Shown piece after piece: positions 41,893 through 62,129 of a DNA stretch of 64,000 bases. Where the stretch lies: positions 26,567 to 90,566 of the forward strand of contig CANRHN010000001.1 of NCBI GenBank assembly GCA_947630425.1, read 5' to 3'. The notes beneath the pieces are model-generated. The model had not been told where the DNA came from, searched no databases, and saw only the letters and a program-made list of their open reading frames with translations. A program made the position numbers and the translations under genes. The DNA is from an uncultured Clostridia bacterium. Lineage in GTDB: Bacteria > Bacillota > Clostridia > Christensenellales > CAG-314. Numbering within the stretch: the first letter of the stretch is position 1; every line of letters starts with the position of its first letter.

Positions 41893-41893
41893 T

Positions 41894-44775: not shown

Positions 44776-45006
44776 ATGAAACAACAAAATGAAAGCAAGC
44801 GCGAATGCTTTGTTCGAATCGCAGAGGCAAGAACGAATAAAATAATTGATATGTTAAGATTGCTTGGCAATTGCTCGAATGTTGCTACTTACGAATATAC
44901 AAAGGAAGACGTCAAAAAAATCTTTGCAGCCATAGAAGAAGAACTGAAGGCGACAAAGACAAAATTTGACACTGTAACAACTACGAATTCTAAATTTAAA
45001 CTTTGA
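44776..45006 (+). CDS. Small (76-aa) helical protein, first gene of the operon
   Basis: The ORF has an RBS. It is basic and helical (KRECFVRIAEARTNKIIDMLRLLGN). A DNA-binding role is only a guess. Confidence 0.55.
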   Translation: MKQQNESKRECFVRIAEARTNKIIDMLRLLGNCSNVATYEYTKEDVKKIFAAIEEELKATKTKFDTVTTTNSKFKL

Positions 45007-45014
45007 GGTGAAGC

Positions 45015-47712: not shown

Positions 47713-47717
47713 TAATT

Positions 47718-48425: not shown

Positions 48426-48437
48426 TGAGGTGAAAAT

Positions 48438-51400
48438 ATGATATGTCTAAGCTGTCGGCAACAAATACAGGACAATCTAACGGAGTGTCCGTTTTGTCAT
48501 GCGCAATATAATGCTGAAAAGCTTAGATTTATCAAATATATAGGAGATGGAAATAGCCTAGTGGGCTATCAAAAATCCTATAAAATTGTCCTGCTCAAGA
48601 ATATTCTCGAACTAGTGCGTTCAGGACAGCAATTATCCGTTGACAGCATCATGTATACGATAAAAGAATTTTATTTAACTCGTGTGCAACAGGGGCTTCC
48701 TGCGGACTATGAAGTCGATGATAGAATCAAAAACATTTCGGAAAAGACGTCAATATATGACATCTGGGCGGTATTTAAGGCGAACCCCTATAATGTTATT
48801 AACAATCAAGGTTTTTTGTTTCTTGAGAAGAATAGTCGGGGAGAGCTGATTTTTGTTTTGCCCGAGGACATAACGAGCACATTAACTGAAGTTGAGTGCA
48901 ATAATCTAATAATGCTTCTCGAAAAAAAGTTAACCCTGTACTATTCAAAAATGGATGGAATCATTGCGGACGGAGCTATAACTGAAAGCATATTCCAAAA
49001 ACAAGCGGATAATATTTGCGCTCAGCCACAGCAACCTAATCGACAGAATGAAAACCTTATTCCCATTGAGCATACACGGTTAAGCAAGCGAGCCAAGGGG
49101 TGCTTGCTTAGAAGTGGATATGTATATATACACGATATTCTTAATCTCACCGAAGGAGATTTATATCGAATTAGAAATATGGGATATAAGTCCGTAGAGG
49201 AGGTCAAGAACCTTATTTCGGACTATCACCACGGATTTAACGTGTTGTGTGATGATGCGCCCAATACTACTGCTATCAAACTTGAAGAATCGGATATGGA
49301 GTGTTTGCTTCAAGACACTTCATTAAGTGTTAGAGCAAAGAATGTGCTGATTCATGCGGGCTATAATAAAATCGGCGATATTTTAAATGTAACTGAGGAG
49401 GGATTAGCTTCTTACCGTAACTTGGGACAATTAACCATTCGGGAAATTTTGGGGTATGTAAAAAAATTTCGAATTGCGAACGGCTTCGATGACGAGCAAG
49501 AGGAGGGCAAGTACAGCATTTTACTACAACCGATAAAGTCCACAAGTTTAAGCAATCGAGCCAAAAATTCACTTTTACAAAGTGGCTATCGAGTCGTTGG
49601 CGATATTTTAGAATTAACCGAGTCCGAATTGTGGTCGTTGCCCAAAATCGGCAGCAACACCGTGGAAGAGATTTTTCTGTTTTCGGTCACGCTGAAGCAG
49701 AAATTAGCAGACGAAACGCCTGATGATGGTGGGCAAAACTATGGATTAATAAAATATCCGTATATAAATATAAATTCTGAGTGCGAACATATGTTGGTGT
49801 CCGTTTTGGTGTATTTCGGCATGCAACCCTCATTGGTTCGGAAATTGCTGGGTCAGGGCATAAGTCAAATTGGACAGTTGAAGTCAATGGACTACTTGCA
49901 GATCAAGACAACAATGGGTTCGGAATGGATTAAATTATTGCACTTCACTTTGGAGGAGTTCTCTAAAGGTGCTATCCATGCAACAAAAATGTTCTTAGAT
50001 AACATCAGTGAAGAAGAGGATCTAAGTTTCATTATTGAACGTAGCCGAGGTGCAACCCTTCAGGAGCTTGGAAACAAATACGGCGCAACGCGAGAGGGAA
50101 TAAGGCAAAAAGTTGAAAAACCACTTAAATTTATAAAACCAGTAGCAGTTTGCTTGGTTAAAGCAATCATGAAAGAAAGGCAAGTTAAATTTTTGACGCT
50201 ACAAGACATCTATGATATTTACGATAACGACGATTATGATGCCATTATTTCGTATGCACTAAGGGAGTCAGAGGATATTGAAACGATTGAGGCGTTAGAC
50301 CTGTTTTTCATTAAAGGCGAAGTTTCATACAATAATATCCTCAAAAGTGTTATTCAAGAATATGTGGGAGAAGGAATAAATTGGCAGCGCAATATCAATC
50401 AGCTAATTGATGTTTTACAAGAGAAAAACTTGTCTTTTATAGAAATAGACGATGCGTGGCGCTATATGCTAAGTATGGGGTATAAAGTGTACGGCGAATA
50501 TGTCGCTCCTCGTGTCGTGTCCTATGGTACACTCTTAGCAATCATCATAGAAGAAGAATTCTCCGAAGGAATATCATTTTCTGACGCGACGGCAGTTGAT
50601 AGGTTGCGGCAACGTGCATTTGAGCGATTTGGCAACTTAAATTTACCAAAGGAAAACAGAGCTTTAATTGCGCGTGTCACTGACTTGTTGGTGATTTGCG
50701 GCAGAGGGAAATGGATTGCGCCCAATAGGGTAGAAATAGAAATTTCCACCCTGGAAACAATTAAAGAGTATATCGACCAGTCGCCTAATAATATTATTTA
50801 TTATCAAGCGCTGTTCAACCAATTTGAAGGGCTACTCACAATGACGAGCAGTATTTCAAATTATCATTATCTGCATGGGGTTTTAAGGTACTATTATGGG
50901 GCAGAATACACGTTTGGTCGTGATAATCTACAAAAAGAGGCAGGCAATATATCTGGTAGTATAGCAAAGCGTATTTATGATTATATCGCTGAGAAGGGAC
51001 AAGCGGTCAGCCGAAAGGAGTTAAAGGGGTTTCTGAAAATTACTTCAGACGTGATGATTTCCAATACGATAAACTCCAATAAGGATTTGTTTCAATGGGA
51101 GTTTAACTATTATAACTGTTTGAGGAATATTAAAATAATGCCATCCGAAGAAGACTTGTTGCACGAAATAATAACAGAATTGTTTGCCAAGAACCAAAAT
51201 TATTGTAGTGCTAAAATGGTTTACGAGTATTGTAATCAATTAATGCCAGAGATGATTGAGCGCAACAACATAAAAAATCCCACCAATTTGTTCTATATAG
51301 TAGCAACTTTGATGAGTGACAAATACAAGTGCAGGTTTCCCCATATTTTGCCGCTCGACAGCAGAGTGTCGACTACAGAAGATATTGCACGGAAGTTTAT

Positions 51401-51983
51401 AAATAATGCTGAAGTGTTGAATTGGAACGAATTTTCTGCTTTTGTTGAGCATTTGGGCTGGGGGCAGAGTACGGCGAATATGATTTTTAATAGCATAGTA
51501 AATGCGGATTATTATAGGGTATCAAGAAGGGAGTATTTGCGAAAGGATAAACTTGTTTTAACAGGATCACAAATTCGTTTAATAAAAGAAGTGTTGGATT
51601 CGCATCTTTATGGGAAACCATTCCTTGGGTCTTGGGAAATAAACTACCATTTGTTACCTAACATTGGACATGAGTGGACGCCACATTTGTTGGATACGGT
51701 TGTGACATGGTTTGTTGACGAATATAGGATGATATTGCCTTGTTATGGAGCAAGTAAAGCTGAGAGAGGGTTAATAGTAGCGGCTAATAGCGCACTTAAA
51801 ACATATGACGGGGTCGTGGAAAGCGCGGTGCGGACGCATGGTCGCCAAAGCCTAACAGAAAATGAGTTATATACGTTATTAGTTCTTGCCGGGGTAATTA
51901 AGGGTGTACTTCCTAATGAACTAAGAGAGTCAAAATTATTTATATACAATGACGGCAAATATACATTAAAAGAGAGCGTCTAA
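48438..51983 (+). CDS. 1181-aa protein: zinc ribbon, helical module, three or four RpoA alpha-CTD-like HhH repeats, sigma-70 region-4-like HTH, and a large unknown C-terminal region
   Basis: Zinc ribbon CLSCRQ..CPFCH. Repeats LSKRAKGCLLRSGYVYIHDILNLTEGDLYRIRNMGYKSVEEV, LSVRAKNVLIHAGYNKIGDILNVTEEGLASYRNLGQLTIREI and LSNRAKNSLLQSGYRVVGDILELTESELWSLPKIGSNTVEEI. Region-4-like segment ATLQELGNKYGATREGIRQKVEKPLKFIK. Confidence 0.75.
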   Translation: MICLSCRQQIQDNLTECPFCHAQYNAEKLRFIKYIGDGNSLVGYQKSYKIVLLKNILELVRSGQQLSVDSIMYTIKEFYLTRVQQGLPADYEVDDRIKNISEKTSIYDIWAVFKANPYNVINNQGFLFLEKNSRGELIFVLPEDITSTLTEVECNNLIMLLEKKLTLYYSKMDGIIADGAITESIFQKQADNICAQPQQPNRQNENLIPIEHTRLSKRAKGCLLRSGYVYIHDILNLTEGDLYRIRNMGYKSVEEVKNLISDYHHGFNVLCDDAPNTTAIKLEESDMECLLQDTSLSVRAKNVLIHAGYNKIGDILNVTEEGLASYRNLGQLTIREILGYVKKFRIANGFDDEQEEGKYSILLQPIKSTSLSNRAKNSLLQSGYRVVGDILELTESELWSLPKIGSNTVEEIFLFSVTLKQKLADETPDDGGQNYGLIKYPYININSECEHMLVSVLVYFGMQPSLVRKLLGQGISQIGQLKSMDYLQIKTTMGSEWIKLLHFTLEEFSKGAIHATKMFLDNISEEEDLSFIIERSRGATLQELGNKYGATREGIRQKVEKPLKFIKPVAVCLVKAIMKERQVKFLTLQDIYDIYDNDDYDAIISYALRESEDIETIEALDLFFIKGEVSYNNILKSVIQEYVGEGINWQRNINQLIDVLQEKNLSFIEIDDAWRYMLSMGYKVYGEYVAPRVVSYGTLLAIIIEEEFSEGISFSDATAVDRLRQRAFERFGNLNLPKENRALIARVTDLLVICGRGKWIAPNRVEIEISTLETIKEYIDQSPNNIIYYQALFNQFEGLLTMTSSISNYHYLHGVLRYYYGAEYTFGRDNLQKEAGNISGSIAKRIYDYIAEKGQAVSRKELKGFLKITSDVMISNTINSNKDLFQWEFNYYNCLRNIKIMPSEEDLLHEIITELFAKNQNYCSAKMVYEYCNQLMPEMIERNNIKNPTNLFYIVATLMSDKYKCRFPHILPLDSRVSTTEDIARKFINNAEVLNWNEFSAFVEHLGWGQSTANMIFNSIVNADYYRVSRREYLRKDKLVLTGSQIRLIKEVLDSHLYGKPFLGSWEINYHLLPNIGHEWTPHLLDTVVTWFVDEYRMILPCYGASKAERGLIVAANSALKTYDGVVESAVRTHGRQSLTENELYTLLVLAGVIKGVLPNELRESKLFIYNDGKYTLKESV

Positions 51984-51997
51984 TACGCTCTCTTTTA
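51969..51997. terminator. Bidirectional terminator between convergent operons
   Basis: AGAGAGCG (51971-51978) pairs with CGCTCTCT (51986-51993), with an A-run and a T-run on either side. Confidence 0.7.
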
Positions 51998-52000
51998 ATG

Positions 52001-54094
52001 CTAGTCTTGATTTTCTCGCCCGTTTGAAAAATCCAAATAAAACAGCTCGTCATTGAGTTTGACAAATAAGATGTCAGTTCTATTATAGTTTTGCAGGTCG
52101 TTAGCGGTTATGGGTTGTCCGCTTTCAACACCCAATCTATCACGGAAATATCGACCCAATAGCGAGTTGTCGTCAGGACAAGTAATCGCTTTATCACCTT
52201 GTTGCTCAACCCGCATTTGCATACAATAGTCGTCGTCAGTAATAACGGTAAAGTATCGTCTGTTCAAAGGGAAAAATCCAGTTGAGGCAATCGACCGAGG
52301 AAGCGGAATGTATGCTTGATCATGATTTCTTCCGGGGCGTTGACCCCAATTTAGTCCAGAGGATTTGCCAACCTCGCCAGTTCTAGATACAAGACTAATT
52401 GTTTGAGTTAATAGCTTTTCGGGATGCAATTCACGAGTTTCGTAATCAAATTGGGGTTGATTTTTATAAATACGGATATAATTTTCCACCTCGTTATCGA
52501 TGTTAATAATCGAATTGCGTTCCACGCTCAGATAGTATTCGTTTGCATCTTCAGCAGAACACTCCATAAGTGTTTCGCCGCAGTCTTTACTAAATGCGCT
52601 TTGCATATAGTTCGCCGATCCACTAAACGCTTTGTATGGCTTGTCATGTTTTAACCAAATGTAGATTTTGGAGTGGATAGGGGGCATTTTGTAGTTATAC
52701 TGGCAGGATATATCCGAACAATCGGGTTTTTCAGAATACTTTTTTTGCAATTCCTTAAACCCCATATGAACGCCAAGACTCAATCCGTCAAAAGGACACA
52801 TGCCGAGTATCAATTTTATTTTTATGGGAATAGCACCAACTTCTTTTAATTTGTCGATATGATACGCCGCCATGCTGGGTGATGCATAAGCGGATACAAT
52901 CCGTAGCTCATCAGCACCATCCAATGCCGGTTGCAATAATACTCTGTTTTCCAAATCGGTATCAAACTGATACTTCATGTCAGAATCCTTGGCATAGAGG
53001 AATTCCAAAGCGTTGCATTCAATGGAGGGATAAGGAATGCCAGCGAAACATTTTAATATCGCTTCAAAAATGATTTTCGCCCCTTGACAAGGGACGGCCA
53101 TACCAATTTGCTTACGAACACTCTCCTTAGATCCGATAAATCGATAGCTGTCGGGGAATGTTTGTAGCCGCGCACGTTCTCTGTTCGTTAATGCACGGGG
53201 CTCTTCCCAGTGGTAAATATGTGTACCGCCGCCGCCACTACCTGTTACAGTATAAGAGGGTTTCGTGGGGTCAAGACGTTTATAAACTTGGCTTATTTTT
53301 GCCCCAGCAACATTCAGGCGAAGATGCTCGGGCAAATCGGCCGTGAAGGCATTTTCGCCCGGACGAATATGATTTAATCTTGCAATGACAGCTTCGGATT
53401 GTCTAGTGCGTTCATTATTAAAAGCATCTGGAGCAATCGGCGGAACCGTTAACGCCGTCTCGCAAGTGTTATCAATACCGCTATAGGGTCGAGGAGAAGG
53501 GACGCGAAATTCGATTTTTTGGTCGTTTCTTATGCCAACTATGATTATTCTATGTCTTGCCTGCGGAATGCCATAGTCTTCAAACTGATAAAGGTGCGGA
53601 TAAAGTGCATAACCGGCGTTTTGCATTTCATGTAATATTTTGGTCAGTGTTTTCCCCTCATTATCGTTTTTAAGTCCGCTTACGTTTTCAGCGATAAACC
53701 ATTTGGGCTGGAAACGGGTCAGCGCCTTGATGCCATAGGTATAAAGAGGGCCATATGTGCCATTTAATCCTTTTTTTTCTCCGACATCGCTGTAATCATT
53801 ACAAGGAAAACCAAAAGCCAGCGCATCAATTGGTGTAAGCTGTGATAAATCAAATTGTCGAACATCTTTATGATAAACACTTGGTGCCAATCTATCAATT
53901 TTCCCTTGATTATTTACAGGGGTATTGCAAATATTGTGCGAATAAGTGCAGCAAGTGTCAAAATCATAATCATTTGCCCAGGCGTGTACTATACTAAATT
54001 TTTCACCATTTTTATTTGTCTGTTGTTGCGCATGGAGGGCTCCCCAGGCAATTCCGCCAGGACCGCAAAATAATTCCCCTAATTTAAATTGCAT
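52001..54094 (-). CDS. Fusion protein: DNA (cytosine-5) methyltransferase plus PLD-family (NgoFVII/BfiI-like) restriction nuclease with a B3-like DNA-binding domain
   Basis: N-terminal half: FCGPGG (motif I), GFPCNDYS (IV), ENVSGL (VI), QARHRIIIVG (VIII), LTNRERARLQTFPDSYRF and GMAVP (IX-X). C-terminal half: HKD motif IHSKIYIW...D...GSANYM, then LNWGQRPGRNHDQAYIPLP. Confidence 0.75.
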   Translation of the reverse strand: MQFKLGELFCGPGGIAWGALHAQQQTNKNGEKFSIVHAWANDYDFDTCCTYSHNICNTPVNNQGKIDRLAPSVYHKDVRQFDLSQLTPIDALAFGFPCNDYSDVGEKKGLNGTYGPLYTYGIKALTRFQPKWFIAENVSGLKNDNEGKTLTKILHEMQNAGYALYPHLYQFEDYGIPQARHRIIIVGIRNDQKIEFRVPSPRPYSGIDNTCETALTVPPIAPDAFNNERTRQSEAVIARLNHIRPGENAFTADLPEHLRLNVAGAKISQVYKRLDPTKPSYTVTGSGGGGTHIYHWEEPRALTNRERARLQTFPDSYRFIGSKESVRKQIGMAVPCQGAKIIFEAILKCFAGIPYPSIECNALEFLYAKDSDMKYQFDTDLENRVLLQPALDGADELRIVSAYASPSMAAYHIDKLKEVGAIPIKIKLILGMCPFDGLSLGVHMGFKELQKKYSEKPDCSDISCQYNYKMPPIHSKIYIWLKHDKPYKAFSGSANYMQSAFSKDCGETLMECSAEDANEYYLSVERNSIINIDNEVENYIRIYKNQPQFDYETRELHPEKLLTQTISLVSRTGEVGKSSGLNWGQRPGRNHDQAYIPLPRSIASTGFFPLNRRYFTVITDDDYCMQMRVEQQGDKAITCPDDNSLLGRYFRDRLGVESGQPITANDLQNYNRTDILFVKLNDELFYLDFSNGRENQD

Positions 54095-54096
54095 CG

Positions 54097-54411
54097 TTAT
54101 TTGCCCTCCTTTAATTCATTTATAAAAAGCAAAACTTTTTTTAATTGGTCTTCATTTAAACCAACGCAACTGTCAATAAGAGGTTTATATAACAAGTAGG
54201 TTTCATCGCTTTCCAAGTAGGCGGCAAGTAGGTTGGTTTGTAATACCTTTGATAGCGAAAGTAACATTTTGATGGAGGGTTTCAGCAACCTATTGTGTTC
54301 TAATTTGCTGACATCGGTATGATTAATGTTGGCAAGTTTGGCCAACCCCCTAACCGATAAGCCCCTTTCTTCTCGGCGGGATTTAATGATGGCGCCCAAA
54401 TCACTATGCAT
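54097..54411 (-). CDS. XRE-type HTH, probable R-M controller (C) protein
   Basis: 104 aa with HTH LSVRGLAKLANINHTDVSKLEHN. It lies 2 nt upstream of the M-R fusion gene. Confidence 0.65.
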   Translation of the reverse strand: MHSDLGAIIKSRREERGLSVRGLAKLANINHTDVSKLEHNRLLKPSIKMLLSLSKVLQTNLLAAYLESDETYLLYKPLIDSCVGLNEDQLKKVLLFINELKEGK

Positions 54412-54417
54412 AAATAT

Positions 54418-54446
54418 ATAATAGCATAGATTAAAAGAAAAAGCAA
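54418..54446 (-). promoter_or_regulatory. Promoter predicted to give a leaderless C-gene transcript
   Basis: On the minus strand: TTGCTT (54446-54441), a 17-nt spacer, TATTAT (54423-54418), 6 nt, then ATG (54411). Confidence 0.5.
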
Positions 54447-54449
54447 CCG

Positions 54450-54471
54450 TGTGCAGCTATTTGGCTGCACA
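54450..54471. promoter_or_regulatory. 8-bp palindrome abutting the -35 (candidate C-box operator)
   Basis: TGTGCAGC-N6-GCTGCACA, 4 nt upstream of the -35 of the C-gene promoter. Confidence 0.4.
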
Positions 54472-54513
54472 AAAAACAAAGATAATGCCGTTTATGGATA
54501 GAAAAGGTGAGGG

Positions 54514-54558
54514 GGTGAATTGTCAAACAAAGTGTTGAACTTAATTTGACAATTCACC
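54514..54558. repeat. Perfect 14-bp inverted repeat with a 17-nt loop
   Basis: GGTGAATTGTCAAA (54514-54527) pairs with TTTGACAATTCACC (54545-54558). Confidence 0.8.
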
Positions 54559-54586
54559 GTTTGTGGGAAGCGAGTTCGCGGGTTCG

Positions 54587-54659
54587 TTCAACCGAGGAGC
54601 GTAGCGACGAACGCCCTCAACCAAGCACGCATTGCGCCCGCCACGAAGCGTAGCAAAGT
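54587..54659 (+). repeat. 73-nt insert element, third copy
   Basis: About 90% identical to 35508-35580. It is preceded by GCGGGTTCG and followed by ACAACGCGCC rather than the tRNA-Arg 3' end. Confidence 0.8.
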
Positions 54660-54757
54660 ACAACGCGCCGCGCGTCAAGACAAGCACATGTCCCATTGTC
54701 ATTTTGATACAAATGTTATAATTATTGGTTAAAATTAAAATAAAAAAGGAGAAAAAT

Positions 54758-55666
54758 ATGAAGTATAAAGAATGGCTGGAAATCTGGCTGAACAACTATG
54801 TAAAAACAACATGCAAAGTGCGCACAAGCGATATCTACCGTTACAGGGTTGAGCATTGCATTGTGCCGTTTTTAGGCGAGTACGAGTTGCACGACCTAAC
54901 TTTGTCGATATTGCAACAGTTTGTAACGGATCTGTTAAATCCTAGTGAGGGCAAGCCACTCTCGGCGAACACGGTAAACGGTGTTATCTCCGTTGTGCAG
55001 AATTCGCTTAAAACTGCGTTTACGTTGGGATATGTTGAAGCGTATGACGCAAATAAAATCCGTCGTCCGAGAACCGTGGAAAAGAAGGTAGAGTGTTTCT
55101 CGGTCGCGGAGCAAAAGCAAATAGAGGCGTGCATAAAAAACAGTAACAAACTAAAACTCTATGGAATCATAATCTGCATGTACACGGGATTGCGTCTTGG
55201 AGAACTGCTTGCTTTGGAGTGGAAAAATGTGGATTTGAACGCTTGCCAACTGACGGTGGAAAAGACTTGTTACTATGTCAATGGACAGCGAATTTTGGAC
55301 GCGCCCAAAACGGCAAACTCTTTGCGCGCCATTCCTTTTCCAAAACAACTATTACCTCTGTTCAAGGAAATGTACAAGGCGCACAAAACTAAGTATGTAA
55401 TTGAAGCGAAAGGACGCCCTGTTTCGGTGCATTCATACCAACGCAGCTTTGAGTTGCTGCTCATCAAGCTCAAAATTCCGCACAAATGTTTCCACTCTTT
55501 GCGGCACACATTTGCCACCCGAGCGTTGGAATGCGGTATGGACGTAAAGACCCTTGCGGAATTGCTCGGACACTCCAACCCGACCGTAACGCTCAAACGC
55601 TATGCACACAGTATGTTGGAATACAAAATTCAGATGATGAACAAACTCGGCAGATTATTTGCATAA
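54758..55666 (+). CDS. Tyrosine recombinase (phage-integrase family)
   Basis: ATG at 54758 follows AAAGGAG. SAM-like N-domain. Catalytic pattern GLRLGELLAL (R), HSLRHTFAT (H-x-x-R) and LGHSNPTVTLKRYAH (H...Y). One TTGGTTAAAA motif lies at 54725-54734. Confidence 0.85.
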   Translation: MKYKEWLEIWLNNYVKTTCKVRTSDIYRYRVEHCIVPFLGEYELHDLTLSILQQFVTDLLNPSEGKPLSANTVNGVISVVQNSLKTAFTLGYVEAYDANKIRRPRTVEKKVECFSVAEQKQIEACIKNSNKLKLYGIIICMYTGLRLGELLALEWKNVDLNACQLTVEKTCYYVNGQRILDAPKTANSLRAIPFPKQLLPLFKEMYKAHKTKYVIEAKGRPVSVHSYQRSFELLLIKLKIPHKCFHSLRHTFATRALECGMDVKTLAELLGHSNPTVTLKRYAHSMLEYKIQMMNKLGRLFA

Positions 55667-55711
55667 AAAATGACGAAAACGCTCGAAAACGTATCGCCAA
55701 AAATGGGAATG

Positions 55712-55872: not shown

Positions 55873-55952
55873 GGCACACAAAAAATCACCCAAAATTTGT
55901 GCATATGTTGTCTAATAAAACAAACATTTGTCACGCAAAAGGAGAACCAAAA

Positions 55953-58178
55953 ATGGCAATTTACAAATGCAAAATGTGCGGCGGAGATCTGGACGTCGCC
56001 GAAAACACGACCGTAGTGGTGTGCGACTACTGCGGCTCCAAGCAGACTGTCCCCACCGCCCGGGACGAAGAGTTGTCAAGCCTGTTTAACCGCGCAAATA
56101 CATTGCGCCGCAAGTGCGAATTTGACAAGGCAGAACAGCTGTACGAGAAGATCCTTGTCAAGGACGACAAACAGCCGGAGGCATATTGGGGCGTGTTGCT
56201 GTGCAGGTACGGCATCGAGTATGTTGAGGATCCCGCCTCGTCCAAACGCATTTCCACCTGCCACCGCACCGCGTTTGAGGCAATTACGTCCGACGAATAC
56301 TACAAGTCGGCATTGCAGTATGCCGACCCCGTGCAAAAGGCAATTTACGAGCAGGAAGCAAAGTACATCGACGGCGTGCAAAAGGATATACTTGCCCTTT
56401 CTCAGCAGGAAGACCCTTACGACGTGTTCATCTGCTACAAGGAAACAGACAACGGCAAGCGCACGCAGGATAGCGCAATCGCCAATGACATCTATTACCA
56501 ACTCACAAGCGAAGGTTTCAAGGTGTTCTATGCCGCTATCACATTGGAAAACAAACTCGGTTCCGCTTACGAACCGGTAATTTTTGCCGCGCTCAATTCG
56601 GCAAAAGTGATGTTGGCTATCGGTACCAAGCCGGAGTATTTCAGTGCCGTTTGGGTCAAGAACGAGTGGTCGCGCTATCTCAAAATGATGAAGAGCGACA
56701 AATCCAAACAACTCATACCCTGCTACCGCGATATGGATGCCTACGAACTGCCCGAGGAATTTGCACACTTGCAAGCGCAGGATATGAGCAAGATCGGCTT
56801 TATCAGCGATATTGTACGCGGTATCAAGAAGATTGTGCGCAAGGAAGAACCGAAAGTGGAAAGCCGCTCCTCTGAAAGCATTGGCGGCGGCAGCCTCAAA
56901 AATCTGCTCAAACGCGCCTACCTCGATCTCGAAAGTCGCAATTTCGATAGCGCAAGGACTCAATTCGACAAGATGCAAGATATCGACCCGGAAAACGGCG
57001 AAGTGTATTTAATTGGCCTGCTGTGCGATTTGCGGTTATCGCGTCCGGAAGATTTGGAAGAATGTTCGGCTCCGTTTACAAGCAACAACAATTGGCGCAA
57101 TTTGAACCGTTATGCCGACCCCGCATTGAAAGCGCGCATTGACAAGTTGTTGCAACTCAACGAAAATTGGAGAATGTACTGCTCTGCCACACAAAAATTC
57201 GATTTGTTGAGCGACGACAGAATATACGAAGATACAAAGAATCAGCTTGCCGCACTCGGCGATTACCGCGACAGCAAGGATTTGCTTGAATTTTTACCTG
57301 ATGTAAGGGATAAAGTTCTTGCAATGGATATAGAGAAAATTATCAAAGAGAACAATGATTATAACGAGTACGATGATTCTTACGCCACATTGCACGAAAG
57401 AGAATATAAAACGCTTTTGGCTGAAAAAAATGTGTACGAATCCGATTTGAGACTGCATGGAACAAGCAATTGGTGGAACGCCGAAAAAGAGACACGACTC
57501 TCCGAGTTACAAAAACTTATCGGAGAAGATGAAAACCAAAAAACCGAACATGAAAATTACAACCCATTTGAAAACTGCAAAAAAGCGAAACAACTGCTTG
57601 CAAAGATTTTGAATGATGAAATCCGCACAAAATGTGGAAAAATGCTAAAAGAATCAATTAAATTTGTTGCCCAAAAATGCAATGAAAAATGTTTATCAGA
57701 CGAAGAACAAATTGCAACGCTGCATGATGGCATTGAACAGGCAAAATTATTAGCAACCTATGACATTAAAAGGGTAGAGAAAAGTAGCAACTTAATTGTT
57801 TTAGGTGGCATTCTTCTGGGGGCATTGCTTTGGATTGCACTTCAAGTCAGTATTATAACTTTCAACGTGGCAGAGGGTGTTAGTGCGTGGATTTTTGTAA
57901 TCCTTGCACCCGCAGTGTTGCCCGGCATAATTATGATTTCTATTGGTAGAGCGAAATTAAAACAAGCATTGAAAGTTAAAATTTATTTTTTCAAAAGTCT
58001 AAAATTAGTGTCGGAATATAAAAAGCGATATTCTGAAATTCAGTCAAAGGCTATTGATATATCGGAAGGAACTGCCAAAATTACAACCATTGAAACTGAT
58101 ATTGAAAATCAAAAAAGCAATATCGCCACATGTGAGAATTTATTGAACGAATTAACGCAAGAATATTCCGATGAATAG
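55953..58178 (+). CDS. Zinc-ribbon / helical-repeat / TIR-domain protein with C-terminal TM helices (741 aa)
   Basis: ATG at 55953 follows AAAGGAGAA. Zinc ribbon CKMCGG..CDYCGS. TIR-like block YDVFICYKETD...FKVFYAA...VMLAIGT...WVKNEWSRYL. TM segment IVLGGILLGALLWIALQV / WIFVILAPAVLPGIIMISIG. Confidence 0.75.
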   Translation: MAIYKCKMCGGDLDVAENTTVVVCDYCGSKQTVPTARDEELSSLFNRANTLRRKCEFDKAEQLYEKILVKDDKQPEAYWGVLLCRYGIEYVEDPASSKRISTCHRTAFEAITSDEYYKSALQYADPVQKAIYEQEAKYIDGVQKDILALSQQEDPYDVFICYKETDNGKRTQDSAIANDIYYQLTSEGFKVFYAAITLENKLGSAYEPVIFAALNSAKVMLAIGTKPEYFSAVWVKNEWSRYLKMMKSDKSKQLIPCYRDMDAYELPEEFAHLQAQDMSKIGFISDIVRGIKKIVRKEEPKVESRSSESIGGGSLKNLLKRAYLDLESRNFDSARTQFDKMQDIDPENGEVYLIGLLCDLRLSRPEDLEECSAPFTSNNNWRNLNRYADPALKARIDKLLQLNENWRMYCSATQKFDLLSDDRIYEDTKNQLAALGDYRDSKDLLEFLPDVRDKVLAMDIEKIIKENNDYNEYDDSYATLHEREYKTLLAEKNVYESDLRLHGTSNWWNAEKETRLSELQKLIGEDENQKTEHENYNPFENCKKAKQLLAKILNDEIRTKCGKMLKESIKFVAQKCNEKCLSDEEQIATLHDGIEQAKLLATYDIKRVEKSSNLIVLGGILLGALLWIALQVSIITFNVAEGVSAWIFVILAPAVLPGIIMISIGRAKLKQALKVKIYFFKSLKLVSEYKKRYSEIQSKAIDISEGTAKITTIETDIENQKSNIATCENLLNELTQEYSDE

Positions 58179-58256
58179 TCGGGATATTGTTGACAAAAGG
58201 CAGACAAGTAAATTAAAAGGGTAATATAAAAACATGTTAATGTGGAGCTAACAATA

Positions 58257-59264
58257 ATGACAAATCTACCAAAGAGACCGCAGGTAATTTTGCTCGGCAA
58301 TGGGATAAATCGTGCATTCAACGGTGTGTCGTGGAATGATTTGTTGAACTCAATCGCAGATGAAAAATATAAAGACAAACAAATAGAGTGTCCCATGCCG
58401 CTTAAGGCAATTCTCGTAACGGGCGATAATATCGATAAAACGCTCAAAAACCATATCGAGCAAAATAGGCAGCAGGCATATGGCGCAATTGTACAAAAAG
58501 AACATGCCGCAATGCTCCAAAAAATTTTATCAATCGGTGCAGATCATATTCTTACCACCAATTACAGTTACGAATTGGAAATGGCGGCAAAAAACGTAAA
58601 AAGCGGGTTGTCGGACTATGCAATCGAGCAAATGATGGCACATACCGATGCCGTTTACAAGGCGGAAAGTAAATATCTGTTGAGCACATACAACCAAGTA
58701 CAATACGAAAAAACACCCAATTGTATTTGGCATATACACGGCGAATCTCGCAAGCCGAGCAGTATTGTGTTGGGGCATTACAATTACGGAAAACTTGTAC
58801 ATAGATACATTGAAACTCTTAACAAACTTGCCAAAACCGAAAATCGATATAAAAATTACGAAGGACAATATAAAGAATGGAAATTTCGAAGTTGGGTTGA
58901 CGCATTTATTTTGGGCGATGTGTATGTGCTTGGATACAAATTGGATTTGTCTGAATTTGACTTGTGGTGGCTCATCAATCGCAAAAAAAGAGAAAAAGCA
59001 GAACATGGTGATATATATTTTTACGAGCCGGCAGTGGAGAACGCGGAAAATGCGGATTCGGAAAACATTGACGCACGTTTGGAACTTATACGAGTTTTCG
59101 CAAAAGAAGTCAAGGATATGAGCGTGACGATTCCGAGAAAGAGCAAAAATGATGACCAATCTGCTTCCAATATCAAATATTACGAATTTTATAAAAAGGC
59201 AATTAACGACATAGCGAACAAAATAAGTGAAATAAAAAATAAGGAGAAAAAGACAAATGTCTAA
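58257..59264 (+). CDS. SIR2-like (SIR2_2-type) protein, 335 aa
   Basis: Motifs VILLGNGINRAF, ILTTNYSYELE, IWHIHGES and VYVLGYKLDLSEFDLWW. GGAG lies 9 nt before the ATG at 58257 (GTG at 58242 is also possible). I recognise no SLOG-like C-terminal domain. Confidence 0.7.
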   Translation: MTNLPKRPQVILLGNGINRAFNGVSWNDLLNSIADEKYKDKQIECPMPLKAILVTGDNIDKTLKNHIEQNRQQAYGAIVQKEHAAMLQKILSIGADHILTTNYSYELEMAAKNVKSGLSDYAIEQMMAHTDAVYKAESKYLLSTYNQVQYEKTPNCIWHIHGESRKPSSIVLGHYNYGKLVHRYIETLNKLAKTENRYKNYEGQYKEWKFRSWVDAFILGDVYVLGYKLDLSEFDLWWLINRKKREKAEHGDIYFYEPAVENAENADSENIDARLELIRVFAKEVKDMSVTIPRKSKNDDQSASNIKYYEFYKKAINDIANKISEIKNKEKKTNV

Positions 59265-61029
59265 ATTTGTAATCGAATGTCCCAAATGCGGCAATTATGC
59301 CGAGGGTAAAACGGGATTTTTTGCAAAAAAGAAAATCGAGTGTTCCTGCGGGCACGTCATTGACGTGCGAACGGAAAAATTGACTTCTCGCGTGTGTCCG
59401 CATTGTGGCAACACGGTTATTTTCGATCAAACCAAGGGCGAGGACGCGCTTTGTCCTGTGTGCCACGAGCATATCAACACGCGCGAGAGTATGAAGGCGC
59501 TTGTCAAATTTACCTGCCCCTCTTGCAGCTGCACGTTGACCGCGGACAAGTCGGCGGACAAGTATGTCTGCCCGCTGTGCGATACGGAGATCGACGTGCA
59601 AAAGCGTATCAGGCAGGAAGAAGTAAAGAACCAAGGAATGGCAAGCGTAATAAAATACGAGGGCGGCAACGACGTATTTGTGTGGAAGCACCCAATCGAA
59701 GATTTCAATTTGGGCTCGCAGTTGATAGTACACGAGTCGCAGGAGGCAATATTCTTCCGCGACGGCAAGGCGTTGGATCTGTTCGGCGCAGGTCGCTACA
59801 CGCTTGCAACGCAAAATTTGCCGTTGTTGGAGAACTTGTACAAGTTGCCCGTTTCGCCCGAGGCGGTGTTCCATTCCGAGGTGTACTTTGTCAACCTCAC
59901 CACGCAAATGGGCGTCAAGTGGGGCACGGACAGCAAGGTGCGCATGTTCGATCCCGCGTCCGGCTTGCATATCGACTTGGGCGCATGCGGCAATTTTAAC
60001 ATGCGTGTGATCGACTCGCGAAGATTGCTTTTGAAACTTGTCGGAACGACAAGTAGTTTCACTCGCGACGACGTGACGGGTAACGACAAGTACGGCGTAA
60101 CCCATGTTGTTGGGCAATTCAAGGCGCTTATTATGAACAAAGTAAAAGCCAACCTCGCCCGCGCCATCAGAGAAACAGGCATCAACATTTTGGAAATAGA
60201 CGAGTATCTCGACATTCTTTCCGACAAATTGAGAGTTATCATCAACCAAACCTTGGAAGAATACGGACTTACCATGTCGGAGTTCTACATAACAAACATA
60301 CTCACTCCGGATGACGACCCCAACTTCAAACGGCTCAAACAGCAATTCGCCGACAAAACGTTGCTTGTACGTCAAGAACAAATACGCAAGGCAGAGGCGG
60401 AAGCCGCGCAGGAACGCAAAATTGTCGAGGCGCAAACCGACGCAAAACTCAAAATGGTAGATGCGCAAGGCGAAGCGGAGGCGTTGAAAATCAAAGCGCA
60501 AGCAGAGGCGGAGGCCTACCGCGCCAAAGCGTTTGCCGAGGCGGACGAGATGAAAGCCAAAGGTTACACCTACCAACAGGAAACCGCACGGCAGGTGGGC
60601 ACGGAAGCAATGAAAAACGGACTTACGGGTAACGGCGGCGCAGGTGGCGCAATGGGCGATTTGGCGGCGTTGGGCATATCGCTTGGAGCAATGGGCAGCG
60701 TGATAGGCATGACCAAGGACGCGCTCAACCCCAATTTGAACGAAACCGCCCGGGTTGCTCAAACTATGCTTTCGCAAGACGCTTGGGATTGCGCAGCGTG
60801 CGGTAAAAAGGGTATAACCACCAAGTTTTGCCCGGAGTGCGGCGCAAAAAAACCGGAAACAGCAACTTGGGACTGCCCCAATTGCGGCGCAAAGCACATT
60901 GCGTCCAAGTTTTGCCCCGAATGTGGCACGCAAAAGTCCGACGGACCGATTGCTTGGGATTGCCCCGTGTGCGGCACAAAAGGAATAACATCCAAATTTT
61001 GCCCCGAATGTGGTGCAAAAAAGGAGTGA
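59257..61029 (+). CDS. SPFH/Band-7 (YdjI/COG4260-like) protein flanked by multiple zinc ribbons
   Basis: Overlaps the SIR2 gene by 8 nt. There are four N-terminal CxxC pairs. The core VIKYEGGNDVFVWKHP...QEAIFFRDGK matches the YdjI-type SPFH family. An Ala/Glu coiled coil follows, then three tandem C-terminal WDC..CG...KFCPECG ribbons. Confidence 0.75.
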   Translation: MSKFVIECPKCGNYAEGKTGFFAKKKIECSCGHVIDVRTEKLTSRVCPHCGNTVIFDQTKGEDALCPVCHEHINTRESMKALVKFTCPSCSCTLTADKSADKYVCPLCDTEIDVQKRIRQEEVKNQGMASVIKYEGGNDVFVWKHPIEDFNLGSQLIVHESQEAIFFRDGKALDLFGAGRYTLATQNLPLLENLYKLPVSPEAVFHSEVYFVNLTTQMGVKWGTDSKVRMFDPASGLHIDLGACGNFNMRVIDSRRLLLKLVGTTSSFTRDDVTGNDKYGVTHVVGQFKALIMNKVKANLARAIRETGINILEIDEYLDILSDKLRVIINQTLEEYGLTMSEFYITNILTPDDDPNFKRLKQQFADKTLLVRQEQIRKAEAEAAQERKIVEAQTDAKLKMVDAQGEAEALKIKAQAEAEAYRAKAFAEADEMKAKGYTYQQETARQVGTEAMKNGLTGNGGAGGAMGDLAALGISLGAMGSVIGMTKDALNPNLNETARVAQTMLSQDAWDCAACGKKGITTKFCPECGAKKPETATWDCPNCGAKHIASKFCPECGTQKSDGPIAWDCPVCGTKGITSKFCPECGAKKE

Positions 61030-61037
61030 GGTGAACC

Positions 61038-61730
61038 ATGAAAAAGAGTGTTTTGTACACGATTATTGCCTTTGCGGCGGTGCTTGTCGTTTACTGTGTG
61101 GCGTTTCTCGTCATTCCGTTTCCCAAATTGGCGGCGTCTTGGGTAGAATTCGGTTTTACGGTGCTTGCAATATGTTTGAGCGGAGCGGTGTTTGCCTATG
61201 CTTTCCGCAGGAGTGTCAAGAGCAAGCTGTACGGATTTCCGCTATTCAAAGTGGCGTTGATTTATGTTGCCGTGCAATTTGCGGCAGGTGTGGTGATTTG
61301 CGTCGTTGCCGCGTTTGTCAACGTTCCCGTTTGGGTATCGATAGTTGTGTCCGTGCCTCTTCTCGCCTTTGGAACGTTGGGCTTTGTTGCAACGGACAGC
61401 GCCAAGAGCGTTGTTGAACAAATAGACGCGGCAACGCAAAGCAGCACACACACCATTGAAAAACTTCAGACGGAAGTTGCAACCATCATCGACAATTGTG
61501 CCGACGCAAACGCACGCGAGGGCATGGAAAAGTTGGCGGAACTTTTGAGGTACAGCGACCCCGTGTCCTGCCCCGAAACTTTGGAATTGGAAAACGACCT
61601 TGTCGCCAAGACGGCGCAACTTCGCGACAGGGTAAAGGAAAATAATTTTGTCGAGGCAACTGCCCTCACGAATGAAATCAAGACAAACTTGGCAGAACGT
61701 AATCGCCTGTGCAAGTTTTACAAAAAATAA
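61038..61730 (+). CDS. Hypothetical four-TM protein with a helical cytoplasmic tail
   Basis: ATG follows AAGGAGTGAGG, 8 nt after the SPFH stop. Confidence 0.55.
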   Translation: MKKSVLYTIIAFAAVLVVYCVAFLVIPFPKLAASWVEFGFTVLAICLSGAVFAYAFRRSVKSKLYGFPLFKVALIYVAVQFAAGVVICVVAAFVNVPVWVSIVVSVPLLAFGTLGFVATDSAKSVVEQIDAATQSSTHTIEKLQTEVATIIDNCADANAREGMEKLAELLRYSDPVSCPETLELENDLVAKTAQLRDRVKENNFVEATALTNEIKTNLAERNRLCKFYKK

Positions 61731-61842: not shown

Positions 61843-61863
61843 TGGCGGAAGAGATGGGATTCG
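61843..61863 (-). repeat. Duplicate of the tRNA-Ser 3' 21-mer
   Basis: TGGCGGAAGAGATGGGATTCG is identical to 62037-62057 (complement of T-loop to CCA). Confidence 0.85.
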
Positions 61864-62036
61864 TCCCGAGCACAGCGAGGGTGAGTGAAGCAACTTTGCA
61901 AAAGTTGCGAAACGCTACATTATTTCGATTTCCCATCTCGGAAGCGCCAAGCAGGCGAAGCCAAAGGAGCGCAGAAAAAAGGGACAACGCAATGCGTGTC
62001 CCATTTTCGGCGTGACTCAATGCGAGCCTGCGCCCG
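61864..62036 (-). repeat. tRNA-trailer unit next to tRNA-Ser
   Basis: Read in tRNA orientation: CGGGCGCAGG..., an A-run, hairpin GGGACA..TGTCCC, a T-run, and ...CGAAATAATGTAGCG. The last motif is the same as at 19290-19305. Confidence 0.7.
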
Positions 62037-62129
62037 TGGCGGAAGAGATGGGATTCGAACCCATGTGCCACCGATGGGTGGCAACCGCATTTCGAGTGCG
62101 GGCCGTTACAACCACTTCGATACTCTTCC
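62037..62129 (-). tRNA. tRNA-Ser (anticodon CGA)
   Basis: Hand-folded cloverleaf: acceptor GGAAGAG/CTCTTCC, anticodon stem CCGCA/TGCGG with loop CTCGAAA, long variable arm GCCACC-CATC-GGTGGC, T arm ATGGG-TTCGAAT-CCCAT, discriminator G, CCA. Confidence 0.9.

Follow-up and report, generated by a model that had tools for sequence, protein, structure and literature searches.

CBASS, Lamassu and Avs are modular defence systems with exchangeable effectors, and polymorphic toxin loci carry CT/immunity cassettes. Type I Thoeris pairs the TIR protein ThsB with ThsA, in which a SIR2 domain is joined to a SLOG sensor. A further group of SIR2 proteins, AbiH/'SIRim', includes KomC of Kongming and the SIR2 domain of DSR2; AbiH, which has been grouped with the immune SIR2s (bioRxiv 10.1101/2024.09.18.613514), is a related SIR2-type protein that acts as a single gene (PMC13064643). 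A different design is seen in the B. subtilis pspA-ydjGHI operon, where YdjI combines a Band_7_1 domain, low complexity and a C-terminal zinc ribbon (PMC8581546, PMC11237479). The soluble YdjI needs two membrane proteins (PMC8581546), namely YdjG, which has zinc ribbons and a TM segment and is described with an NTF2-like domain, and YdjH, which is described with a TPM domain (PMC11237479).

We analyzed 64,000 nucleotides (hereafter, the window) from an uncultured gut Clostridia bacterium (contig CANRHN010000001.1, positions 26,567 to 90,566), in which four ORFs are tightly packed on the + strand: G1 (55953-58178, 741 aa), G2 (58257-59264, 335 aa, with an alternative GTG start at 58242), G3 (59257-61029, 590 aa), and G4 (61038-61730, 230 aa). 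The last 8 nt of G2 are shared with G3, a gap of 8 nt separates G3 from G4, and a GGAG-type ribosome-binding site lies ahead of each of the four starts. All four belong to a single operon, which is carried on a small block linked to an integrase. A sequence-only reading had described this packing, which the ORF check bore out, and had assigned the products as TIR, SIR2, SPFH, and TM proteins. These assignments were right: the cited motifs (YDVFICYKETD, WVKNEWSRYL, TTNYSYELE, and HIHGES) were all found in the translations, and the Pfam matches to TIR_2 and SIR2_2 exceed the curated cutoffs. The PADLOC search that it had proposed was run with all four proteins and matched zero models, and no paper on a TIR-SPFH-4-TM module was found in the searchable literature. 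The operon has the look of a bacterial module for immunity or conflict that has yet to be described, and not of a Thoeris system.

A membrane-tethered TIR protein and a minimal SIR2

G1 (55953..58178, +) is built of a zinc ribbon, TPR, TIR, and further TPR regions; a coiled region comes next, then two helices that form a membrane hairpin, and finally a tail of 76 aa. Its family comprises at least 8000 clusters that are 56-75% identical over aa 1-450; conservation of these N-terminal 450 aa across thousands of clusters is unusual, and is atypical of fast-evolving defence genes. The N-terminal ribbon (CKMC...CDYC, aa 1-33; 55953..56051, +) has CxxC pairs at aa 6 and 24, with cysteines that are invariant in alignment A5. 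It gave weak zinc-ribbon matches in Pfam and NCBIfam and aligns with the ribbon of a TIR-less relative, L170 (hhalign E=1e-5). The TIR domain (aa 158-279; 56424..56789, +) scores 45.7 bits with TIR_2 (E=1.1e-11), where the cutoff is 28; this profile was hit by 28/30 members of the family, and TPR was matched in G1 as well. Within WVKNE(238)W, E238 is invariant in the family alignment and aligns with the Glu of WPAREL in the Brucella TcpB/BtpA TIR (PDB 4lzp/4lqc, E 0.035-0.06). The AF2 model of the TIR region has low confidence, and the fold search returned TPR matches only.

A hydropathy scan agreed with the proposed membrane tethering of G1 through two TM helices (aa 614-632 and 647-665; hairpin aa 614-665, 57792..57947, +), each scoring 2.45 on the Kyte-Doolittle scale. 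The paralogs of G1 are single-pass proteins with an N-in/C-out topology, having 93 K/R before the TM helix versus 26 after it in 14 paralogs, and their outer domains vary among RCC1, LRR_5, and DUF6273. The arrangement invites a functional analogy with animal Toll-like receptors, which likewise combine a single pass, a cytoplasmic TIR, and variable repeat ectodomains (LRR_5 and RCC1 in the paralogs). The polarity of G1 is inverted, however, its TIR being N-terminal; this TIR belongs to the bacterial TIR_2 type and has a catalytic-type Glu, and the window's own G1 has a hairpin and lacks an ectodomain. We suggest no shared ancestry outside the TIR domain.

G2 (58257..59264, +) is a stand-alone, defence-type SIR2 of the SIR2_2/AbiH-like kind (30.7 bits with Pfam SIR2_2, E=3.7e-7; the cutoff is 24.5). 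The motifs GNG, TTN(102)Y, and WHIH(161)GE are invariant in its family. The AF2 model (pLDDT 85.9) consists of a single SIR2 domain and a long C-terminal helix; no SLOG or other sensor domain was found in it, in keeping with the minimal SIR2 described earlier. The top Foldseek matches are the SIR2 domains of BcThsA, KomC, and DSR2 (E 1.8e-8 to 1e-6), the nearest being that of ThsA (8btp, E=1.8e-8), and H161 aligns with H146 of KomC. Thus, G2 resembles the AbiH/'SIRim' proteins in being a single-domain SIR2_2, and KomC and DSR2 in its fold and His, but differs in occupying an operon slot of a TIR-SPFH module; KomA/KomB-type partners, as in Kongming, were not seen in the operon. Many members of the G2 family have precomputed matches to PF14253 (AbiH), whereas G2 itself gave nothing at E<=0.1 against this profile and nothing at E<0.01 against the PADLOC models. 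Judged by motifs and model, G2 is likely an NAD-destroying enzyme, a predicted NADase like the SIR2s of ThsA, DSR2, and KomC.

These features raise the question of Thoeris-like signaling, in which an NAD-derived messenger made by the G1 TIR would directly activate the G2 NADase, with SPFH and TM4 serving as accessory scaffolds. A TIR gene does adjoin a SIR2 gene of the ThsA-type fold, the catalytic-type Glu of G1 and Asn and His of G2 are conserved, and G1 has a weak match to NCBIfam Thoeris type III ThcB4. This match, at 23.5 bits, is far under the cutoff of 220, and PADLOC found neither ThsA nor ThsB. Unlike ThsA, the G2 model has no SLOG, Macro, or other ligand sensor, and G1 is a 741-aa membrane-tethered zinc-ribbon/TPR protein. 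Thoeris has no SPFH and 4-TM partners, both of which are conserved here.

The SPFH protein and its 4-TM partner

G3 (59257..61029, +; 590 aa) is a flotillin-like SPFH protein of the YdjI/COG4260 type (Band_7_1 3.5e-39, DZR 1e-8). Besides its SPFH core (Band_7_1, aa 148-353; 59698..60315, +), the protein has three zinc ribbons toward each terminus, an EA-rich coiled coil, and a hydrophobic segment rich in Gly (alignment A3), and it distantly matches the cage-forming Erlin-1/2 (5e-5). The tandem C-terminal ribbons, of the form W-D-C-x2-C-G ... F-C-P-E-C-G (CxxC, aa 512-585; 60790..61011, +), are encoded by three 71-nt direct repeats (D1). Seven CxxC zinc-ribbon units had been counted from the sequence; the 11 CxxC and two CxC motifs of G3 instead form six ribbons.

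G4 (61038..61730, +; 230 aa) starts with four TM helices, and its cytosolic part is a helical domain with the motifs [KR][YF]SDP[VM]S and ERNR.CK. The hydropathy scan scored three helices, and alignment A4 supplies the fourth conserved hydrophobic stretch, so the four-TM description stands. No Pfam family matched G4, which belongs to an unnamed family of 1178 clusters, all of 221-235 aa. It is an obligate partner of the SPFH gene.

The sequence-only reading had likened the SPFH scaffold to that of the pspA-ydjGHI envelope-stress operon. For the SPFH protein the likeness is real: G3 shares the YdjI/COG4260 design, lacks a TM helix of its own, as does YdjI, and is encoded with a zinc-ribbon TM protein and a second membrane protein. 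Beyond it the likeness fails, as there is no pspA, G4 lacks the TPM domain of YdjH, G1 carries TPR and TIR where YdjG has its NTF2-like domain, and G3 has six ribbons. A YdjG/H/I-type system for envelope stress or membrane organization, in which G1 and G4 would recruit SPFH so that membrane domains are organized or repaired, or variable surface proteins held in place, with the TIR as an interaction module only and no immune role, is one rival reading. The YdjI architecture, the dependence of YdjI on membrane partners, the strong conservation of the N-terminal module, the housekeeping contexts of some loci, and the resemblance of paralog C-termini to surface-protein domains would all fit. We nevertheless regard it as improbable: pspA was found neither in the operon nor in annotated related loci, the catalytic-type Glu of the TIR is invariant, SIR2 or HEPN-like genes occupy the slot between G1 and G3, and the block is integrase-linked, is placed differently in close relatives, and has relatives on phage-like contigs.

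A conserved triad with an exchangeable cassette

Among the 80 closest SPFH loci (metagenome), the 4-TM gene adjoins the SPFH gene in 73, one or more G1-like TIR genes are present in 58, and a G2-like SIR2 is present in only one; most loci that are missing triad genes are short contigs. When SPFH lineages are counted at 70% identity, TM4 is present in 13/13 and TIR in 10/13, and the same trio recurs in 3/3 G1-seeded and 3/3 G4-seeded contexts. The conserved unit is thus TIR, SPFH, and 4-TM, and it is widespread in gut and rumen Clostridia. In two TIR-less relatives, the next gene is a separate TIR-like gene (L171) or encodes a protein with SIR2/AbiH-like motifs (L170).

Linkage of the SIR2 gene is another matter. 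A G1-family TIR gene lies directly upstream of a G2-family SIR2 gene in ca. 12/80 species loci seeded from SIR2, with gaps of -32 to +49 nt; the window shows the same order, and so the adjacency recurs across genomes. Yet SIR2 is present at only one of the 80 closest SPFH loci, and in ca. 60/80 SIR2-family loci, TIR, SPFH, and TM4 genes are all missing from the neighborhood. Moreover, the TIR-linked SIR2s are scattered through the SIR2-family tree, and at a sister locus (L184) the SIR2 has been swapped for another gene. SIR2 is therefore an exchangeable accessory.

Comparison with L184 delimits the exchange. The two loci are 90.8% identical over G1 aa 1-570 and 88.7% over SPFH and TM4; between these lies the only stretch without L184 similarity (57664..59240, +), save for an 80-nt patch at 58098-58177 (75%). 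Within this stretch lie the C-terminal anchor and tail of G1, the spacer that follows, and the slot gene, here SIR2. Its GC3 is 31-41%, versus 52-70% in the conserved flanks, the drop from 56-70% coinciding exactly with the stretch, and TIR C-terminal regions and slot genes are lower in GC3 at most other loci too. L184 instead has a different anchor and a 216-aa protein, unrelated to SIR2, with a HEPN-like RNxxxH motif (RNAFAHG), whose gene overlaps the SPFH start. The alignment indicates a cassette exchanged by recombination between conserved flanks. At other loci the slot holds HEPN-motif proteins, DUF2971 proteins, or nothing, as in one triad without a slot gene (L185); slot genes share the strand of their neighbors and often run into the 5' end of the SPFH gene. 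Two slot families (c10 and c62) have an invariant W..RN..IH motif in common, and a third (c15, DUF2971) resembles the PADLOC candidate PDC-S31. A PDB profile search with the HEPN-motif slot proteins found nothing, and their putative HEPN nature is a matter of motifs only.

A low-GC cassette swapped between near-identical loci within a conserved frame, with alternative cargo of effector look (SIR2 and HEPN-motif proteins), recalls CBASS, Lamassu, Avs, and polymorphic toxins, although here the TIR protein's membrane anchor is part of what is swapped. To our knowledge, no CBASS, Lamassu, Avs, or polymorphic toxin system has a frame of TIR membrane protein, SPFH, and 4-TM. The swap also bears on Thoeris-like signaling, for which the shared adjacency was the appeal: the SIR2 is dispensable here, 79/80 of the closest modules are without it, and an unrelated protein takes its place in the sister locus. 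A dedicated pair of TIR signal and SIR2 receptor is therefore not the conserved design, and we consider this account quite improbable.

Because the SIR2 family occurs mostly away from the triad, often by secreted surface proteins or ordinary genes, G2 could instead be an autonomous passenger. The triad would then be a resident membrane or surface-receptor module without an immune role, the TIR-SPFH interval a recombination hot spot, and G2 an AbiH-like gene, either selfish or a single-gene defence, that inserted at this spot and works independently of its neighbors. Such a history would account for the absence of SIR2 from 79/80 SPFH loci, for the ca. 60/80 SIR2 loci without the triad, whose neighbors are unrelated, some of them housekeeping genes and others encoding surface proteins with signal peptides, for the polyphyly of TIR-linked SIR2s, for the foreign-looking GC of G2 (38% versus 49-52% in G3 and G4), and for the housekeeping contexts of some triads; the single-gene action of AbiH (PMC13064643) provides a precedent. 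It sits poorly with ca. 24% of SIR2 loci being in or adjoining a triad that covers well under 1% of the genome. The SIR2 gene is also nearly always on the same strand and directly 3' of the TIR gene, at -32 to +49 nt and in any module order, and the copy in the window runs 8 nt into the SPFH gene. Finally, effector-type genes recur in the slot in operon orientation, and the TIR C-terminus swaps along with them. On balance, we view a passenger G2 as rather unlikely.

Mobility and a proposed mechanism

A tyrosine integrase gene (54725..55666, +; Phage_integrase 5e-26 and Phage_int_SAM_3 in Pfam) sits immediately upstream of the operon. Integrase remnants upstream of the L184 TIR gene match its 3' part at 72.7% identity, whereas every other flank differs between the two loci, and the window's integrase gene probably belongs to the same mobile block as the operon. 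The block with its integrase is found in two unrelated neighborhoods, and its position differs between close relatives. Downstream, an exact 21-nt copy of the tRNA-Ser 3' end (61843-61863, -; repeat D9) lies between G4 and tRNA-Ser(cga) (62037-62129, -; ARAGORN and Rfam), giving two matches versus 0 expected; this repeat (61843..62129) may be an att remnant at the right border. The neighbors of the block in the window are PDC-M33, R-M fusion, and RmrA-like genes, and triads elsewhere lie by relaxase, resolvase, DrmB-like fusion, or phage genes. Relatives of the block occur on phage-like contigs, and several triads are found among housekeeping genes (polA, ribosomal proteins, hprK, and hisS). 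Such housekeeping contexts, the lack of a PADLOC match, and the triad without a slot gene argue against an immune module.

The explanation we favor, to which we give an even chance, is a mobile TIR module that is organized at the membrane and whose suicide effectors can be swapped, the one in this operon being a SIR2 NADase like those of ThsA, DSR2, and KomC. In such a module, the cytoplasmic TIR domains would be tethered to the membrane, in the paralogs via the single N-in/C-out helix, with the variable RCC1, LRR_5, or DUF6273 domains exposed on the outer side. The 4-TM protein would recruit an SPFH ring, which could hold the TIR domains ordered or separate, until an envelope disturbance, most plausibly phage adsorption or injection, lets them assemble and activate. 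The activated TIR would be an NAD+ glycohydrolase or a signal synthase, and the cassette-encoded effector, presumably controlled in the case of SIR2 through the co-swapped C-terminus of G1, would then stop the cell.

Four genes and their domains

The operon consists of four plus-strand open reading frames, which encode the zinc-ribbon–TPR–TIR membrane protein G1 (55953-58178, 741 aa), the minimal SIR2 protein G2 (58257-59264, 335 aa), the YdjI-type SPFH protein G3 (59257-61029, 590 aa) and the 4-TM protein G4 (61038-61730, 230 aa). These calls over 55953-61730 agree with the tight packing described in the sequence-only reading, with an 8-nt overlap of G2 and G3 and an 8-nt gap between G3 and G4, and a GGAG-type ribosome-binding site is found at all four starts. 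A scan for promoters and terminators gave counts at background level, and the source record gives no protein names for G1-G4. When Pfam domain calls were judged against curated cutoffs, both TIR_2 and SIR2_2 passed, upholding the proposed TIR and SIR2 assignments. The PADLOC check suggested in that reading was carried out with the v2 profiles, and none of the four proteins was recognized by a model (no match better than E=0.02).

The first 450 residues of G1 comprise a zinc ribbon, TPRs, a TIR domain and further TPRs. Pfam recognizes TPR and TIR_2 (aa 158-279, 1.1e-11, 45.7 bits vs a cutoff of 28), and 28 of 30 G1 family members match TIR_2. The family includes at least 8000 clusters with 56-75% identity over the N-terminal 450 aa, and E238 of the WVKNEW motif is invariant in its alignment. 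In a weak alignment (E=0.035), E238 lies opposite the Glu of WPAREL in the Brucella TcpB/BtpA TIR, the catalytic residue according to work on BtpA and SARM1. When aa 1-460 were modelled with AF2, pLDDT was <50 in the TIR region, Foldseek with this model returned only non-significant TPR matches, and a G1 profile searched against the PDB likewise matched TPRs only. Because AF2 gave no confident TIR fold, the TIR call rests on profiles.

Hydropathy places two hydrophobic helices near the C-terminus of G1; unlike the usual paralog, the window's protein ends in a hairpin of two helices with a short tail in the cytoplasm. G1-type paralogs, of which there are one to five per locus, diverge past aa ~450, where a single TM helix usually precedes RCC1, DUF6273, LRR_5 or TPR domains or a bare tail anchor. 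Lys and Arg residues in 14 family proteins number 93 preceding the TM helix vs 26 after it; these positive-inside counts put the TIR head in the cytoplasm and the variable domains outside. One locus beside a relaxase/NikA pair (L164:2456-17324) shows strong paralog expansion, with a single SPFH–4-TM pair surrounded by five G1-type TIR paralogs, some of the RCC1 type and others of the DUF6273 type.

SIR2_2 (3.7e-7, 30.7 bits vs a cutoff of 24.5) is the sole Pfam match of G2. Its family, with ~640 clusters and members of 300-335 aa, has the invariant motifs GNG, TTN(102)YSYELE, WH(159)IH(161)GE and EFDLWWL.NRK, with N102, H159 and H161 unchanged across 30 sequences. The AF2 model (pLDDT 85.9) shows one SIR2 domain with a long C-terminal helix, in line with the earlier description of a minimal SIR2 with no SLOG or other sensor, and Foldseek ranks it closest to the SIR2 domains of BcThsA (1.8e-8), KomC (8e-8) and DSR2 (1.5e-7). 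In a profile search of the PDB, H161 pairs with KomC H146, which is changed to Asn in the deposited NADase variant (H146N). Many G2 homologs of 40-50% identity carry precomputed matches to AbiH (PF14253); G2 itself reaches neither PF14253 (Pfam, E<=0.1) nor any PADLOC family (E<0.01). AbiH has been classed among immune SIR2s (bioRxiv 10.1101/2024.09.18.613514) and treated as a single-gene Abi that probably depletes NAD (PMC13064643). Thus, the SIR2_2 match above cutoff and a fold similar to that of solved immune SIR2 NADases, with the catalytic Asn and His retained, make G2 a credible minimal defence-type SIR2 without a ligand-sensor domain.

G3 matches Band_7_1 (3.5e-39), with DZR and Zn_Ribbon_1 at the C-terminus, and a hydropathy scan finds no TM helix in it. 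Its 11 CxxC and 2 CxC motifs make six zinc ribbons, correcting the seven units first counted. Three tandem 71-nt repeats (60781-61022, 68-80% identical) code for its three C-terminal ribbons, and the copy number among homologs ranges from two to four. Distantly related to the cage-forming erlins, G3 has the Band_7_1 domain, the C-terminal zinc ribbons and the lack of a TM helix of its own that place it in the YdjI/COG4260 type; YdjI is a Band_7_1 SPFH protein with a C-terminal zinc ribbon (PMC8581546, PMC11237479) that requires membrane partners (PMC8581546). G4 has no match at E<=0.1 to any Pfam family, including TPM, and belongs to an unnamed family of ~1200 clusters. The hydropathy scan scores three helices and the family alignment supplies a fourth hydrophobic stretch, consistent with the four-TM protein originally proposed.

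The conserved trio and the exchangeable cassette

Which of these genes belong together was assessed from several starting points. The SIR2-seeded scan used one genome per GTDB species and gave 80 loci, all from Clostridia MAGs. G1-like TIR, G3-like SPFH and G4-like genes lie within 10 kb in 18-19 of these loci, and a TIR gene is immediately upstream of SIR2 in ~12, regardless of the order of the other genes. Roughly 60 have quite different SIR2 neighbours, including signal-peptide LRR_5/Big_2 surface proteins, an LRR-Roc-COR protein, a WD40 protein, Macro-domain proteins, ComEA-like HhH proteins and ordinary housekeeping genes. On the neighbour-joining tree of the SIR2 family, those linked to TIR genes do not form one clade but are scattered. 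The reciprocal scan was seeded with SPFH; among the 80 closest SPFH relatives in metagenomes, it found the 4-TM gene in 73 loci, at least one G1-like TIR gene in 58 and a G2-like SIR2 in only one. With redundancy collapsed to SPFH lineages at 70% identity, the 4-TM gene is present in 13/13 and the TIR gene in 10/13, and the same trio surrounds 3/3 G1 homologs and 3/3 G4 homologs on long contigs. Thus, the SIR2-, SPFH-, G1- and G4-seeded counts define TIR, SPFH and 4-TM genes as the conserved unit and SIR2 as an accessory. Of the TIR-SIR2-SPFH synteny that the sequence-only reading proposed to analyse, the TIR–SIR2 adjacency is seen in some loci, and SIR2 is rare beside the closest SPFH relatives.

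Other recurrent neighbours were seen in these scans. A Macro-domain protein follows a G2-type SIR2 in six loci (family c7; L026, L031, L046, L048 and others), and in L035, L062 and L065 the genes flanking the SIR2 encode a VWA/DUF2201 metallopeptidase-like protein and an LRR_5 protein that has no signal peptide and ends in BRCT; both may be other SIR2 partnerships. A fusion of an Hsp70-like ATPase with DrmB/DUF1998-MZB (family c4; PADLOC DrmB 5.5e-78; for example L146:2555-5485) is encoded just ahead of the TIR gene in 13 of the SPFH-seeded loci and is possibly a further accessory of the module.

The gene position between TIR and SPFH is variable. Within G1, GC3 is 56-70% over aa 1-450 and 31-33% over aa 451-741; it remains low in G2 (41%) and is back at 52-66% where G3 begins, and most other loci show the same contrast. 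L184, a locus in MAG GCA_947589685.1, is 90.8% identical to the window over 55935-57663 and 88.7% over 59241-61729, with essentially no similarity over 57664-59240. In place of that segment it has another membrane anchor and a 216-aa protein with an RNAFAHG motif, which overlaps the SPFH start by 8 nt; in a 75%-identical relative (L185) the slot is empty. Many unrelated small same-strand genes occur just upstream of SPFH in the metagenomic loci. An invariant W..RN..IH motif, of a type typical of HEPN RNases with their Rx4-6H signature, is common to two families of slot proteins, c62 and c10, the latter found in 9 loci, and a protein in L172 has RNAIAHG. Searches of Pfam, PADLOC and PDB profiles gave no support for HEPN, and because the PDB profile search came back empty we call these two families and the L184 and L172 proteins HEPN-like at the level of motifs. 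Slot family c15 is DUF2971, similar to the PADLOC candidate PDC-S31, and the remaining families carry no annotation.

The best-supported reading, to which we give about an even chance, is that the locus is a membrane-organised TIR module, in which the SPFH oligomer and its 4-TM partner would frame TIR proteins tethered to the membrane, while the low-GC cassette would provide a matched anchor and effector, in the window a predicted SIR2 NADase. For such a module we infer the trigger, the TIR product and the mode of SIR2 switch-on. Alternatively, the SIR2 gene, found beside SPFH so rarely, might be a passenger that works on its own, lodged in a recombination hot spot of a module without an immune role, which we consider possible but unlikely.

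Mobility, neighbourhood and distant relatives

The similarity between the window and L184 takes in the 3' part of an integrase and none of the outer flanks; thus the ~7-kb block appears mobile. L184 lies near recF-gyrBA, without tRNA-Ser, and in the window the block is bordered by tRNA-Ser on one side and a low-GC island on the other. The 3' end of tRNA-Ser(cga) has an exact 21-nt duplicate (61843-61863 and 62037-62057, 194 nt from the tRNA), which looks like an att remnant of integration at this tRNA. It was the only candidate for att sites bounding the block, with no third copy in the window. Other triads are found among housekeeping genes. The module sits amid phage structural genes in two loci (L172, L173) and adjoins an integrase in L176. 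Scans of viral contigs yielded only nine SPFH relatives and one SIR2 relative, so that the system is not typically phage-borne, though some relatives are on phage-like contigs.

The island (40000-55700) has a GC content of 38-42% vs ~48% elsewhere, with strongly positive GC skew at 44-52 kb, and stops at the integrase that is also present with the TIR block in L184. Among its genes are those of a PDC-M33 candidate system, an R-M fusion of the M.C5–NgoFVII type and an RmrA-like pair. At 45015-51983 (+), three genes match PDC-M33 A, B and C very strongly (a PADLOC candidate; 1.9e-204, 3.7e-80 and 6.6e-71, the third being DUF6339). After them comes a gene for a 1181-aa protein, with a zinc ribbon at its N-terminus and three repeats of the RNA-polymerase alpha-CTD, which may be a fourth component of that candidate system. 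At 52001-54411 (-), a C5 cytosine methyltransferase is joined in one 697-aa protein to an NgoFVII-type PLD restriction nuclease and a B3-like DNA-binding domain, and an HTH controller-like gene is adjacent. An RmrA-like HTH–M78 peptidase gene (PADLOC 2e-38) and a PDC-S70-like gene at 41058-43189 are bracketed by ~130-nt direct repeats (41058-41188 and 43060-43189; 2 kb spacing, 83-95% identical), suggesting a small inserted cassette.

SPFH genes at a greater distance (34-38% identity) still occur with the 4-TM partner and with a zinc-ribbon–TPR–coiled-coil protein that has no TIR domain. Downstream of such a TIR-less module in L171 (5002-8005) are a separate TIR_2-like protein (1.5e-5, just under cutoff), small membrane proteins, a small protein weakly similar to the octameric membrane proteins of the 8xMP family, and a PBECR4 nuclease; in layout this resembles arrangements of the type II Thoeris-like kind. 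After the TIR-less gene of L170 is a 503-aa protein with SIR2/AbiH-like motifs (GNG/TLNYD/HLHGD), for which profile comparison gave no statistical support as a SIR2/AbiH member (hhalign E=0.013, probability 3%; no Pfam or PDB match).

Known systems compared and what the module may mean

The pairing of TIR and SIR2 had been read as the logic of Thoeris. Type I ThsA joins SIR2 to SLOG, a sensor of cADPR isomers, whereas G2 is SIR2_2 alone, has no PADLOC ThsA match and aligns, as a model, with only the SIR2 part of ThsA (TMt 0.37). G1 has a TIR_2 domain, but no PADLOC ThsB model matches it at E<=0.1. An NCBIfam scan of G1-G4 found no known system, and G1 gave a 23.5-bit, TIR-level match to the type III Thoeris protein ThcB4 (cutoff 220). 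Finally, the TIR–SIR2 pair is the Thoeris core, but here SIR2 occurs in 1/80 of the closest SPFH/TIR modules and is replaced in L184. Membership in Thoeris therefore fails on SLOG, on the ThsA/ThsB profiles and on conservation of the pair, and on these grounds true Thoeris-like signalling from TIR to SIR2 is quite improbable.

The SPFH scaffold had been likened to that of pspA-ydjGHI, and an envelope-stress or surface-anchoring role of YdjGHI type would fit a G3 that is built like YdjI. However, PspA is absent among G1-G4 and from the families annotated in related loci, and YdjH is a TPM-domain protein (PMC11237479), whereas G4, from its unnamed 4-TM family, has no TPM. With neither PspA nor a TPM partner, the likeness is limited to the SPFH protein, YdjGHI equivalence is otherwise out, and we regard such a role as improbable.

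We rate the locus as belonging with the TIR/SIR2-type conflict systems, as a variant with an SPFH and 4-TM frame. A bolder and doubtful extension is that the G1 family are bacterial counterparts of TLRs, sensing surface events and firing cassette-encoded suicide effectors that are swapped with the membrane anchor. Thousands of single-pass proteins would combine an invariant cytoplasmic zinc-ribbon–TPR–TIR head with hypervariable LRR_5, RCC1 or DUF6273 ectodomains, and a flotillin-like SPFH cage, together with its 4-TM receptor, would confine them; the events sensed might be phage adsorption or foreign cells, and the effectors a SIR2 NADase or a HEPN RNase. Literature searches for TIR, SPFH, SIR2 and phage, and for SPFH and anti-phage, found no description of a system like that in the window, and neither the PADLOC models nor the literature searched link TIR to SPFH in bacteria.

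If the module is immune, framing of the TIR protein by an SPFH scaffold and a polytopic partner, not by a soluble sensor, would add a design to TIR-based conflict systems, in which the role in the present module would be gating of TIR enzyme assembly, and SIR2 or HEPN-like effectors would be exchanged as cassettes along with the membrane anchor of the TIR protein. Its scale is considerable: the thousands of G1-relative clusters and the ~1200 of G4 are from gut and rumen Clostridia, and these relatives are named only "TIR domain-containing", "leucine-rich repeat protein" or "hypothetical". With N-in/C-out paralogs that carry outer LRR or RCC1 domains, receptor-type TIR signalling in bacteria, comparable to that of animal TLRs, would become testable.
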